A DNA stretch of 64,000 nucleotides from a virus (IMGVR_UViG_3300036770_006511:1-64000), one strand, 5' to 3'; shown: positions 15,095 to 28,501, numbered from the stretch's first letter. The notes: generated from the sequence alone by a model not told the origin. Translations and numbers: made by a program.

Positions 15095-16765
15095 TTAGGA
15101 CTCTTTTCTTAACTTTCCGTCGTAGAATTCAAATCTATCATGTTCAGTGGGTGTTGCAAAAAGTAATGCGGACTTGATATTACCCTTTTTACCTTCCTGA
15201 TAAATGTAACTCATCCAAGTTTGTTCGAATGGTCTATCCCATTTGGTTGTTAGGAACATTTTTTCATTTCCGTGACGTGTTACCACTTGAGGCCAGTTAC
15301 AATAATAAACCTCACCTACACCATAAGCCAAACCTTTGTACGAACGAACTTCAGTGAACTTTGTTCTTGGAGCATTTGGGTCAAGTCCCTGAACGGGTAG
15401 TGTTGGTTTTTCGGGCCAATATTCTTCCCTAATACTCTGAGGTACATTGTACCAAGACCATTGAGTTCCATTGTCTCCATAAAATTCCGTGAAATTCATC
15501 TTCAAGAAATCCAAGGATTGGTCTTTAGCAATTTGGATGACTTTGTTGTATAGATTGGGAATGTGTCTTATAAAACCATTCTTACAAGTTTCGTTCTCTC
15601 CATTGTAAAAGAACATGTCGTCTTCAAAAAACCAATAGAAGTCGAATTTGTTTTCTTGGGCGTGTTCGGCAATCCATTGTCTACCACCACAAATACCTAA
15701 GTTATCTTTCTTGATGTGTTCGAAACCATGTTGTTCACATAATTCCAAATATCTTTCAGTTGTTGTTAAATCAGAGGAGTTGTCCAACAAAAACTTCTTT
15801 GGTCTTTCCAAGAAATTCTTATCGTAGATTTCCATAGATTTAATTAAAGTTTCAAACTGATTGGGACTATTAAATGTAATTACGTACAGAGCAGCGTTGT
15901 TGATGTTCAAATCCGAATAAGTGGTTTTCCCTGCAGTGTTTTTGATTTTGTGAGTACCGTTTTTCACATCCTCACAAAATTTACCAATCAAACCGTTAGA
16001 TTCAATTTCGTAATAATCAAAAAGGTCGGGGTGTCGGTACAACAAAATACTGAAAAGAGATTCTTCAGTTCCCATGAAACCATCAGACAAAGTTTGATTC
16101 ATCACATTGTAATACAAACCATTTACGTCATTAATTGCATCTTTTCTACCTCCGAAAATTCCTCCACGACAAACTAACTTTACGTGATTTCCCGCGTAGT
16201 TATTTATCTTTGGGTAACTGAACCCATGGATTTCTCTTTCAGCGTTATACGGAAAAGCAATGAAACCAAAATTGTTGAACAACTTATCAAATTTGTGATG
16301 AATTTTGTCGTGAGTAAAATAACCTGGGTGAACGGTGTTTGTAATTCCTGCGTCAATCCAAAATAAATGGGTAGAATCGAAAGAATCAAAAATTCTGGCA
16401 TCATTCAGTAAAAACATTTTGGACATCACAAGTGGATTATACATTTCCAATCTTGCTTGAGTTGATTCGGGTAACCAACCTGATTGATTATACCAATCAG
16501 GATTTGTTCTTATTTGCTGTATTCTATCGTAGAAATTACTTTTAAACCATTCTTGACTCCGAGTAATAAATTGAGTCTTCGATTTGTCTCGTCTTTGCCA
16601 AATAAAATTTTCCAAATCAGAATCACCAAAAATAATTAGATTGGCATCGATTTGTAAAAGTTGTTCGAATTTATCTAAATAGTGTTGGAAAGAACGAGAC
16701 CACCCTTCTTGTAATTCATCTCGTTTTATGTTCCAAAGTCCTGTTACAAATGTTACGTTATTCAT
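15095..16765 (-). CDS. HtrL/YibB (WlaTC)-like glycosyltransferase fused to a GT-A domain
   Basis: TFVTGLWNIKR, YNPLVMSK, FWIDAG, GGIFGG, GTEE; second domain NLGICGGRQ..FFEDD. Confidence 0.7.
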   Translation of the reverse strand: MNNVTFVTGLWNIKRDELQEGWSRSFQHYLDKFEQLLQIDANLIIFGDSDLENFIWQRRDKSKTQFITRSQEWFKSNFYDRIQQIRTNPDWYNQSGWLPESTQARLEMYNPLVMSKMFLLNDARIFDSFDSTHLFWIDAGITNTVHPGYFTHDKIHHKFDKLFNNFGFIAFPYNAEREIHGFSYPKINNYAGNHVKLVCRGGIFGGRKDAINDVNGLYYNVMNQTLSDGFMGTEESLFSILLYRHPDLFDYYEIESNGLIGKFCEDVKNGTHKIKNTAGKTTYSDLNINNAALYVITFNSPNQFETLIKSMEIYDKNFLERPKKFLLDNSSDLTTTERYLELCEQHGFEHIKKDNLGICGGRQWIAEHAQENKFDFYWFFEDDMFFYNGENETCKNGFIRHIPNLYNKVIQIAKDQSLDFLKMNFTEFYGDNGTQWSWYNVPQSIREEYWPEKPTLPVQGLDPNAPRTKFTEVRSYKGLAYGVGEVYYCNWPQVVTRHGNEKMFLTTKWDRPFEQTWMSYIYQEGKKGNIKSALLFATPTEHDRFEFYDGKLRKES

Positions 16766-17639
16766 AAATTCTATTAAATTCTTCTAATATTCGATAAAAA
16801 CTTTTTTTATCTTGATAATATGAAATATCCAAATCTCTTGGTCCAGAGTCAGGACACCACCAAATATCGAATTCTTTAGTTTCAAACAATTCTTTGTGAT
16901 TGACCCTCATTAAGGACATTATGTGTTCTTCGTGTGGTAAACCTCTGTCTTCGGTCATTATTTTTTGTAAATAATCCTCAAAAATGTTTACAACATTATC
17001 CCATTTTGATTTGTGTCCACCAAACATTCCACCAATGACATGACGACTTGGGTCATAATCTGTATACCACTTTCGATGGACTGTCCCTGACCAATAATAA
17101 TTTACATTTTCTTTTGCTAATAACAAAAATTTATCACCAGTATCTTCTATAACGTTTTTCAAAAACTCATTGTTGAACAAAGATGACTCATAATATCTTC
17201 TTTCGGAACCTGTACTGTTCAAATATTTGTTGGGGATTAAACCCGTGTGAGATAAGCCAGCATCTATCCAGTAATAATAATCATATGATTTATCCTCATT
17301 CCACCACCAATGAAACTTAGAATATTGAATCTCAACACATCTGTCACCTCTTTTTGTTTCTTCAACATTTTTCACTTCATTTATTAAATCAAAAAATTTT
17401 GTTTTGGAAATGTCAAAAATTTCGAATTTTAATCTATTTTCATCAATATGGTGGTCAGAATAAAAAAAGTTTTTCAACAATTCGATTTCTCTTTCGGAAG
17501 TGTAACATAAAAAATCTGCGTCGGTAATTTTTAACAAGGAAAGTAAACTCCAACGGTAATGACCACCTCTTGAAGCTCTACCACCGAATTCGGTACCTGA
17601 CAAATCACTATAAATACAGGTTATAAATTTAGTTGACAT
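16758..17639 (-). CDS. HtrL/YibB-like putative glycosyltransferase
   Basis: SKF..YWIDAGL..IGGMFGG..HEE parallels the neighbouring gene. Confidence 0.6.
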   Translation of the reverse strand: MSTKFITCIYSDLSGTEFGGRASRGGHYRWSLLSLLKITDADFLCYTSEREIELLKNFFYSDHHIDENRLKFEIFDISKTKFFDLINEVKNVEETKRGDRCVEIQYSKFHWWWNEDKSYDYYYWIDAGLSHTGLIPNKYLNSTGSERRYYESSLFNNEFLKNVIEDTGDKFLLLAKENVNYYWSGTVHRKWYTDYDPSRHVIGGMFGGHKSKWDNVVNIFEDYLQKIMTEDRGLPHEEHIMSLMRVNHKELFETKEFDIWWCPDSGPRDLDISYYQDKKSFYRILEEFNRIYE

Positions 17640-26900: not shown

Positions 26901-28501
26901 CCTGAAAAGGTCAGATTGTCTTTCAAACCTTGGGTTCCCCCACCCACAGAAATATTAAAAGGAACGCCAACTTGTCTTTCTTTATATGTGTTTAGTGGTC
27001 TTGGGATAATTTCCTCAAAATCTTCACACACCATTAAAAGTTTTCCGTTTACAAAAACTTTTAATTTACCTAAACGATATTCCCTTTCTTGTAACCAAAG
27101 GTCGTTTATATGAACTTCAGTTGTCTTTGCGGGTTTGTAATCATCATAACCCTCTTCGTGGGTTATTGGTGGTATAACCAAACTAACACTATTATTGGCA
27201 GAAGATGCTGTGAAAACTTCTTTTTCAATCTGACCTAACCCTCCTAAATAATCTAAATCCTTACAATCGTAATAGGCGTTTCTCTCAAATACGGCATCAA
27301 TCTGTACCCAATGTTCTAAGTTGATATATGGTGTGAATTTACAATCTTCGAAAATTCCTCTTGTAGAACACCACTCGACGGTAGTAACACCAGTAACAAA
27401 TGTAGTGGCTGTAAGACAACTTCCTGAGGGAATACAACTTCCTGTGATAAGGTATTCTTTAACACAAACTCTCGGGTTACCAGTATCACCACTAAATCTG
27501 ATGGACATTGCATTAGACACACCATCGTAAAGTGGGTCCAATTCTTTCACAGATGCTTCTGTCGAACAACTACAAGGGCAACCACAATTACAATTCGAAG
27601 ATGTGACACCCGACGGTTGGTATACAGGTATACAATCTGCACCTGTCCCCCCCGTTATGGAACAACCACAGGTGTGCATACAAGTAAGTCCTGAAGTTAC
27701 TCGGGTGTAACCAGTATCAGAAGATGGACTACCATCTGCATAGTGATAAAATTTGTTTTCGGCTCGAGAACCCATAAAGAAAAAAGTTCCCTTGTTTTCT
27801 GGATAACGAGCATTTAATCCAACATTGGTATCACCTGTGAATCGGTACTTCAACATCATTTCAACAGTCCATCCCTGACTCATCCTAGTTGGGAGAACTT
27901 CATAGTCATAACCTTGAAGTTTGTAGAAACCTTGGTAGAATCCACCGTTTAATTGCGCCACGGTTCCGATATCACCACCAGCATTGACGTAACTCAAACC
28001 ATATGAGTATGAATCATCGTTCCACAATCTATTTTCAGGGGTTGTGTTTCCTGAAATAGGATGCATCTTAAATCTTCGGTCGTAAATGTATCGGTTGTAA
28101 GTTTCTGCGGTGGTTGTGTAAAGTCCGGTGAAAGCGGTCATTGTTATTCCCGACATTTCTTTAGTAAGTCCGTTGTCAATACCTGTCAAACCGACATCAC
28201 AAATTTCTGTAGTTTTAGGACAAAAATTAGGGTCTATATTGTCAGGATTATAAAAGTTTTCTGAAACTACTGTATCATATCTAAAATCATCAACTAACGG
28301 TGATATGGTTGTCCCCGTTGAATTGAAATCAAATTTGAATGGCATTCTATTACCATCATCTTCAGCAATCAATAACGGAGAAAAAATAACCTCCTGATTA
28401 AAGTCTCGAGCGTCATCTGCCAAACAGAAATCTGTTATTTCATTGACGGGTTTAAGACCAATCTTTCTATAATTGTATTGATTGAGATTTTGGTATGCCA
28501 T
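23987..28501 (-). CDS. Large fibre/adhesin-like protein with LamG (ConA-like) domains and Thr-Pro tracts
   Basis: Two C-terminal LamG-like domains ([16 protein letters not shown]; [30 protein letters not shown]), a split LamG-like N-terminal region and several long TP tracts. Confidence 0.75.

Follow-up and report, generated by a model that had tools for sequence, protein, structure and literature searches.

A GT60-led glycosyltransferase cassette beside Thr-Pro-tract genes in an uncultured jumbo phage: a candidate system for cytoplasmic O-glycosylation of fibre-like proteins

Viruses that glycosylate proteins with enzymes of their own include chlorovirus PBCV-1, whose capsid is modified, Mimivirus and other giant viruses, which carry glycosylated fibrils, and mycobacteriophages with glycosylated virions. 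To our knowledge, glycosylated phage particles are known from few cases, none of which involves a mucin-like acceptor or a glycosyltransferase (GT) of family GT60. Here we describe a 13.4-kb region (15,095–28,501) of the IMG/VR virus IMGVR_UViG_3300036770_006511, in which genes coding for proteins with long Thr-Pro (TP) tracts lie next to a GT60 gene and further transferase genes, and we regard it as an even call whether this GT60-led cassette O-glycosylates the TP stalks of the phage's fibre-like proteins in the cytoplasm. PBCV-1, the giant viruses and the mycobacteriophages likewise use their own soluble transferases and sugar-nucleotide enzymes, with no endoplasmic reticulum or Golgi and no export machinery; the present locus departs from them in that its candidate acceptors are long TP stalks of hypervariable fibre-like proteins and in that a GT60 leads the set. 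Thr/Pro linkers also join the globular modules of bacterial modular carbohydrate-active enzymes, and some of these are O-glycosylated in their native hosts. Those proteins are secreted, whereas the phage TP proteins have no signal peptide and would need to be modified in the cytoplasm by phage enzymes.

The characterised GT60 enzymes are from protists. The Trypanosoma cruzi pp-alpha-GlcNAcT acts on KPPTTTTTTTTKPP and needs Mn2+ (PMC3769586), and TcOGNT-2 is related to Dictyostelium Gnt2, with Thr-rich mucin-like peptides as acceptors (PMC3769586). The phage enzyme shares with TcOGNT-2, Gnt2 and Gnt1 the PF11397 domain, the DxH metal motif and the GT-A fold; it is soluble like Gnt1, without the type II anchor and Golgi context of Gnt2 and OGNT, and differs further in being encoded by a prokaryotic virus and in having an extra conserved C-terminal beta-rich domain (amino acids (aa) ~300–416). 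With the GT27 polypeptide N-acetylgalactosamine transferases (ppGalNAc-Ts) of animals and Toxoplasma it has in common the D-x-H motif and a GT-A catalytic domain followed by a C-terminal beta domain; at 10–17% identity and a TM score of about 0.4–0.5 it is not GT27 by sequence, and Pfam finds no ricin-type lectin domain in it. A literature search for GT60 or PF11397 together with phage returned no description of such a system and one passing CAZy listing, in a sponge virome preprint.

The culturable jumbo phage XacN1 has three cassette genes in common with the phage described here, namely homologues of its GT60 (49% identity; ORF334), of a 293-aa protein (29%; ORF332) and of a 556-aa protein (41% over the full length; ORF330). 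In XacN1, Xoo-sp13 and RAS14 these three genes form a cassette with a carbamoyltransferase, and short PTPTPTP linkers are scattered elsewhere in the genomes. Purified XacN1 virions give at least two periodic-acid-Schiff-positive protein bands, listed without assigned protein identities, which the authors propose to be the work of transferases that the phage encodes, ORF334 (the GT60 homologue) among them (PMC5852040).

The analysed window comprises the initial 64 kb of an IMG/VR record of 77,089 bases; the record is rated ~25% complete and accordingly covers part of a jumbo-phage genome of roughly 300 kb. Its G+C content is about 36%, and among its gene products are a tail sheath protein, an SNF2 helicase, a family-B DNA polymerase (PolB), a dUTPase, PhoH and many transferases. 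A megablast search of the 13.4-kb region against deposited phages gave no DNA-level match. In a look-up of sequencing runs no RNA data set was listed as containing the sequence, and the best-matching DNA sets may be the source sample itself. Two complete relatives served for comparison, G001 (321,139 bases, with terminal repeats) and G002 (294,914 bases, also termed nearly complete), and the window is collinear with positions 49.9–102 kb of G001. The open reading frames (ORFs) named in the first-pass annotation were all recovered at their coordinates and on the minus strand, including four co-oriented genes with 12 TP tracts among them; the features of the region are listed here in 5' to 3' order on that strand.

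23987–28501, minus strand: 1504-aa modular protein with five TP tracts (aa 659–741, 744–818, 838–863, 961–1006 and 1215–1277)
23300–23971, minus strand: 223-aa protein without a TP tract, within the row of TP genes; TATTTAT upstream
22718–23284, minus strand: 188-aa protein with one 46-aa TP tract and 8 Cys; no TATTTAT upstream
20859–22682, minus strand: 607-aa 'beads on a string' protein, four tracts between small Cys-bracketed modules; phrog_15511; TATTTAT upstream
19714–20802, minus strand: 362-aa protein, two tracts (87 and 67 aa) between Cys-bracketed modules; phrog_15511; TATTTAT upstream
19687–19710, minus strand: intrinsic-terminator-like hairpin with a T run (9 pairs, 5 of them G-C) in the gap between the last TP gene and GT60
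18374–19624, minus strand: 416-aa soluble GT60-family GT-A glycosyltransferase with a C-terminal beta-rich domain (PF11397, E 1.7e-68)
17629–18372, minus strand: 247-aa GT25-like protein (PF01755, E 1.1e-9, residues 7–44, the N-terminal nucleotide-binding part)
16758–17639, minus strand: 293-aa HtrL/YibB-like GT-A glycosyltransferase (hhalign to the HtrL domain of the 556-aa protein 87%, E 3.7e-6)
15095–16765, minus strand: 556-aa two-domain transferase, N-terminal HtrL_YibB (PF09612, E 6.4e-16) and C-terminal GT-A-like domain

The assignment of gene 18374–19624 to GT60, which had been suggested by the motifs IASYRD, QIDSHMRF and GEE, holds: all three motifs are present, and the PF11397 match scores 232.1 bits against a cut-off of 21 and spans profile positions 2–44 and 91–350 of 352. 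The gene also matches phrog_24687 (E 3.6e-167). D93-S94-H95, E205, E206 and H230 show full invariance or a conservation of at least 90% across 43 homologues of 35–50% identity. An AlphaFold2 model (pLDDT 95.8) has a Rossmann-like GT-A core, and every top match in a fold search of the PDB is a polypeptide GalNAc-transferase (GalNAc-T4, T2, T10 and T1, and TgGalNAc-T3; E 2.6e-10 to 1e-8); a phmmer search of PDB sequences gave no match. A hydropathy scan finds no transmembrane segment. Together these results support a soluble enzyme with an intact DxH metal site and a fold nearest to the mucin-initiating ppGalNAc-transferases, and the protein is a candidate initiating polypeptide O-glycosyltransferase. 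The nearest folds in BFVD, a library of viral structures, are proteins named 'Glycosyltransferase, GlcNAc' of uncultured tailed phages, Megaviridae and a Pandoravirus. The family of homologues is large, with 4,484 clusters at 50% identity. Some homologues are giant proteins of 1,600–2,500 aa in which up to four stretches match the query, i.e. they contain several GT60 domains.

The four TP proteins together have 722 residues in their tracts, including 313 Thr (43%), with 22% Pro, and Thr stands at nearly every second position. No other window ORF of at least 100 aa carries such tracts, and at the DNA level a TPTxTPT pattern has 54 matches on the minus strand of the record and none for the reversed control. 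In the 1504-aa protein the tracts also set apart two ConA/LamG-like domains (Laminin_G_3, E 1.5e-22, two stretches). Its N-terminal 625 aa are 67% identical in G001 and the remainder diverges; the match to phrog_8510, a 'virion structural protein' family, lies in the C-terminal LamG part only, and for the N-terminal 640 aa the ESM Atlas gave only unnamed viral clusters and LamG-like leads. The homologue of the 188-aa protein sits elsewhere in G001, at 180.9 kb, and the intervening 223-aa protein has no Pfam, PHROG or NCBIfam match and no G001 homologue. As had been claimed, the TP proteins appear to lack signal peptides: in a simple hydropathy scan, used in place of a dedicated predictor, neither a hydrophobic N-terminus nor a transmembrane-like segment shows up in any of the four (maximal 12-residue hydropathy within the first 36 residues at most 0.95). 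The late-type motif in common with the tail sheath gene, the LamG domains and the pattern of conserved N-terminus and variable C-terminus suggest that these may be virion proteins. A Cys-bracketed module of ~70–80 aa, without a Pfam match, recurs between the tracts of the 362- and 607-aa proteins; the phrog_15511 match of these two proteins may partly reflect low complexity.

The gene order is fixed among relatives: TP genes, GT60, a variable GT cassette (1.2 to more than 8 kb), the 556-aa gene, a 132-aa gene and PolB. Relatives retrieved by PolB show the identical order; loci fetched in that way whose flank stopped short of GT60 were left out of the scoring of presence and absence. Among 80 IMG/VR relatives with a GT60 78–96% identical to that of the window, same-strand TP-tract ORFs precede GT60 in 74, the nearest mostly ending about 50–130 bp away from it; of the six loci that lack them, four offer less than 600 bp of upstream sequence. 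TP ORFs are almost never found within 10 kb downstream of GT60 in these relatives. Both the TP genes and the GT cassettes are hypervariable among them, whereas the GT60, 293-aa and 556-aa genes stay.

The pairing of GT60 with TP-repeat genes, proposed in the first-pass annotation as a check across related phages, extends beyond this clade into other phages and into bacteria, with one GT60 phage clade that has no TP neighbour. In a phage clade ~50% identical in GT60, giant TP ORFs (up to ~1,550 aa, with ~1,000 and at most ~1,076 tract residues) are present in 7 of 14 loci and end 38–620 bp upstream of GT60; another distant GT60 phage clade has Ser/Thr/Pro (S/T/P)-rich ORFs upstream in 16 of 38 loci. 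Among 80 bacterial contigs with GT60 homologues of 36–71% identity, S/T/P-tract ORFs reach a density of 1.74 per 10 kb up to 600 bp from GT60, versus 0.14–0.30 per 10 kb at 0.6–10 kb, a 6–12-fold enrichment. This enrichment comes from 15 loci (about one in five) in six or seven phyla by bin: Bacteroidota, Gemmatimonadota, Actinomycetota, Acidobacteriota, Alphaproteobacteria and Verrucomicrobiota, plus one phage-like contig labelled Planctomycetota. Some of these neighbours are small proteins in Gemmatimonadota with, by eye, a PqqD-type-looking N-terminus, a hydrophobic stretch and a TP tail; others begin with Tat-like RRxF signals and continue into long TP or S/T/P tracts, and the Tat route would leave room for them to be modified in the cytoplasm before they are exported. 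The closest binned homologues (62–71% identity) are on contigs labelled Saprospiraceae, Lewinellaceae and Bacteroidia, labels that could hint at the host lineage or reflect mis-binned phage contigs.

The three transferases downstream of GT60 fit their first assignments to differing degrees, and none of the four cassette transferases has a membrane segment. The 247-aa protein was called GT25, and its PF01755 match is above the cut-off (38.9 versus 24 bits) but covers only profile positions 3–40 of 199; because the match spans 38 residues the label is tentative. The protein also matches phrog_2835, a glucosyltransferase family (E 1.6e-5), has no NCBIfam match, and its slot varies among relatives from 33–83% identity to absence. 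The GT25 family includes collagen galactosyltransferases, which makes collagen-like fibres another possible acceptor. At 0–5.4 kb in G001, an 1805-aa collagen-like tail fibre (phrog_5073, phrog_1806 and others) adjoins a 495-aa TP-tract protein.

Of the two transferases described as HtrL/YibB-like, the 556-aa protein has the Pfam domain (residues 3–251, 59.2 bits against a threshold of 24.1), and the 293-aa protein is joined to it only by hhalign and by its GT-A fold. The 556-aa protein scores below the thresholds of the NCBIfam YibB equivalog models, TIGR02192 among them (68 versus 264.9 bits and 37 versus 342 bits), and by these profiles is a family-level relative of HtrL/YibB and not an orthologue; its gene is conserved in nearly all relatives. 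The 293-aa protein, without a Pfam match, is by profile alignment a paralogue of the HtrL domain of the 556-aa protein, and the nearest folds to its AlphaFold2 model (pLDDT 85) are retaining GT6 alpha-1,3-GalT/ABO transferases and a GT8 xylosyltransferase.

On the opposite strand the window contains an island of roughly 17 kb of glycan-building genes, followed by two further GT-like genes, with at least seven transferase genes (GT2, GT4, GT10, GT11 and GT1-like) in the two segments:

33714–51067, plus strand: glycan-building island coding for GT2_5+GT4, GT2, GT11, GT10, GDP-mannose 4,6-dehydratase, a cupin, a split HldE-like pair (cytidylyltransferase and PfkB kinase), two FkbM methyltransferases, a sulfotransferase, GT2, a hexapeptide acyltransferase, a DegT aminotransferase, a Zn-dehydrogenase, an epimerase, and a HAD-nucleotidyltransferase fusion
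53088–54952, plus strand: two further GT-like genes, GT1-like (below cut-off) and GT2, with G001 counterparts 62–65% identical

The island probably serves the same pathway as the GT60 cassette. Its segments 37694–47483 and 49266–51067 have no G001 counterpart save one weak partial match, and G001 has ~0.8 kb there. The genes missing from G001 code for the GDP-mannose dehydratase, the cupin, the split HldE-like pair, one FkbM methyltransferase, the sulfotransferase, a GT2, the acyltransferase, DegT, the dehydrogenase, two proteins of unknown function and the HAD-nucleotidyltransferase. Like an O-antigen locus, the central ~10 kb of the island is a cassette of sugar-pathway genes that can be swapped, and with the middle of the island absent in G001 the glycan repertoire varies between close relatives, as the TP genes do.

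The TATTTAT motif, reported at most of the TP genes, is present before three of the four and absent before the 188-aa gene. It lies 5–25 nucleotides (nt) before the ATG of the 1504-, 607-, 362-, 223- and 132-aa genes and the tail sheath gene, and also precedes a head-tail-adaptor-like gene; it is missing before GT60 and from the transferase genes. Of its 22 copies in the window, 14 stand no more than 45 nt ahead of an ORF start on the same strand:

TATTTAT upstream sites (coding strand): 4064, 5906, 8113, 9671, 15083, 20820, 22687, 23980, 28512, 28532, 55734, 59973, 61463 and 63454

These sites precede sheath, adaptor-like, TP and unknown genes, and the motif is a candidate late promoter, a fit and not a proof. 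The hairpin at 19687–19710 is the top-scoring terminator-like site in 14500–29000; since such sites are in total no more numerous in the region than expected from shuffling, only this single intergenic hairpin is used here. A sigma-70 promoter scan was at chance (46 found versus 45.8 expected). With the hairpin between them and GT60 lacking TATTTAT, the TP genes and GT60 are probably separate transcription units, which removes the operon argument and is compatible with enzymes made before their late substrates.

Taken as a system, the locus would work as follows. Late in infection, hypervariable fibre-like proteins would be made in which extended (Thr-X)n/Thr-Pro stalks hold apart small Cys-bracketed modules and ConA/LamG lectin-like heads. 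The soluble GT60 would add the first sugar to stalk Thr, by family analogy an N-acetylhexosamine from a UDP-sugar, with a metal bound by DxH; membership of the family would suggest UDP-GlcNAc as the donor and retention (an alpha linkage), and the adjacency to T/P-tract genes in phages and bacteria lends contextual support to a polypeptide acceptor, Thr or hydroxyproline (Hyp). Extension and decoration of the chains may then fall to the GT25-like and HtrL/YibB-like GT-A neighbours, together with the island's transferases and tailoring enzymes, and the finished glycoproteins would be mounted on the particle, where the glycans might stiffen the stalks, resist proteases or mask the virion. In favour of this scheme are the family, catalytic motif and fold of the GT60 enzyme, the recurrent adjacency, the hypervariability that TP genes and GT cassettes have in common, the absence of multi-pass membrane proteins from the window and the glycoprotein staining of virions of XacN1. 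The first-pass interpretation as a whole is partly supported.

The main rival to this proposal is that the TP tracts are unglycosylated extended spacers between domains, of a kind found in many modular proteins of bacteria and phages, that the GT60 cassette and the island glycosylate other soluble targets (capsid, sheath or other structural proteins), with parallels in chloroviruses and some mycobacteriophages, and that the adjacency reflects a shared structural-gene neighbourhood. Several observations weigh against glycosylated stalks, many of them on the side of plain linkers. G001 has 10 TP-tract ORFs at 7 loci, two adjoining GT60 and five further loci being without it; TP tracts are thus the phage's general linker type genome-wide, and GT60 would have to act in trans across the genome if it modifies them. 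One GT60 phage clade has 19 loci without a T/P or S/T/P ORF within 10 kb, and a complete 166-kb genome of that clade has three TP-pattern matches only; to this extent relatives carry the GT cluster independently of TP genes, which had been named as an outcome that would refute the interpretation. Another complete GT60 genome has many TP-pattern matches, far from GT60. No S/T/P-tract neighbour is found at 65 of the 80 bacterial loci, and the 74 of 80 pairings within the clade of the window count as conservation, not independent support, as they come from one lineage by shared ancestry. The cassette of XacN1 has no long TP neighbours, its nearest TP tracts being two short linkers in a 3313-aa protein after the baseplate wedge genes, yet its virions stain for glycoprotein. 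The terminator-like hairpin and the differing upstream motifs part the TP genes from GT60, and that the TP proteins are in the virion is something we infer. Against plain linkers, the adjacency recurs in separate phage clades and several bacterial phyla with the local enrichment given above, and the characterised GT60 enzymes and the nearest folds, the ppGalNAc-Ts, use just such Thr/Pro-rich unstructured peptides. On balance we think unglycosylated spacers unlikely, if well within consideration.

A change of acceptor, from Thr to Hyp, is a good deal less probable. Here a prolyl-4-hydroxylase (P4H)-type oxygenase would hydroxylate stalk prolines, or alternatively collagen-like fibres, and GT60 would then add sugar to Hyp, on the model of Gnt1 acting on Skp1 Hyp in the cytoplasm and of the Hyp-rich glycoproteins of plants and algae. 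That the window has no prolyl hydroxylase had been taken to favour Thr, and no PF13640 oxygenase of this type is found in the 77-kb record (~25% of the genome); the argument weakens with the complete relatives, which carry such P4H-type oxygenases, three in G001 and two in G002, a further point against the Thr-based proposal. At ~288.9 kb in G002 a 620-aa protein fuses a P4H-type 2OG-Fe(II) oxygenase (PF13640) to a GT2 and is followed by a second GT2 gene; this is the architecture expected for hydroxylation-coupled glycosylation. The collagen-like fibre beside a TP protein in G001 and the solubility of the phage GT60, a property in common with cytoplasmic Gnt1, also suit Hyp. Set against these, a long distance separates the oxygenases of the relatives from GT60, and phages often encode members of PF13640, a broad family whose substrates are unknown. 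Thr is the better guess because it is twice as frequent as Pro in the tracts, alternates regularly at every second position, and is used by the characterised mucin-type GT60 enzymes (PMC3769586). Two other readings move the target away from protein. The cassette might remodel the lipopolysaccharide or lipooligosaccharide core of the host, or a lipid-linked glycan, so as to block superinfection or avoid sticking to debris: the GT25 and HtrL/YibB families are tied to lipopolysaccharide core loci, XacN1 has a nearby GT9, and the split HldE-like pair suggests a nucleotide-diphosphate-heptose route. We hold this to be very improbable, as the 64-kb window has no multi-pass membrane protein among all 64 of its ORFs, no transmembrane segment in the island proteins, no membrane-anchored transferase, and none of the flippase, polymerase, ligase or initiating-phosphotransferase types (Wzx, Wzy, WaaL); the HtrL match is at the domain level only (68 bits against an equivalog cut-off of 265), and we know of no GT60 in lipid-linked pathways. 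Least probable is that the transferases glycosylate modified bases of the phage DNA in evasion of restriction. The cassette adjoins PolB, and the 556-aa protein weakly matches TAGT (E 0.0014, below the cut-off) and phrog_842, a beta-glucosyl-HMC alpha-glucosyltransferase family (E 2.6e-5), matches that concern this protein alone. PolB linkage is not conserved, because PolB of XacN1 sits on the other side of the cassette. G002 keeps GT60 without a thymidylate-synthase/hydroxymethylase-family gene, GT60 and its nearest folds are protein transferases, and neither G001 nor G002 has a Tet/JBP (PF12851) match, a weak blank in that no control genome matched either.

A broader proposal, which we put at somewhat less than even, is that GT60 and S/T/P-tract proteins form a widespread and undescribed mucin-type O-glycosylation system of the prokaryotic and phage cytoplasm, one that in jumbo phages builds a strain-variable glycocalyx on lectin-tipped fibres with swappable cassettes, and that could be a prokaryotic relative of protist GT60 and animal GT27. 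Should the stalks prove to be glycosylated, these abundant uncultured jumbo phages would be using enzymes of their own to assemble bottle-brush glycoprotein fibres inside the cytoplasm of bacteria. This would bear on phage adherence, protease resistance and the evasion of recognition, on why fibre genes and transferase cassettes vary together, and on the evolutionary origin of the eukaryotic mucin-type initiating enzymes; it would also offer soluble, anchor-free polypeptide O-glycosyltransferases with defined natural acceptor peptides for bacterial glyco-engineering.

Two further genes of the window are of note. A 508-aa protein (8138–9664) has a Fe/Mn superoxide dismutase domain at residues 36–225, followed by ~280 C-terminal aa with no more than a weak match to phrog_14585, whose function is unknown; the TATTTAT motif preceding its gene suggests that it may be late or virion-associated. 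Between the structural and helicase genes, a 131-aa SET-domain protein (5948–6343; PF00856, E 4.2e-18) is a possible protein lysine methyltransferase.

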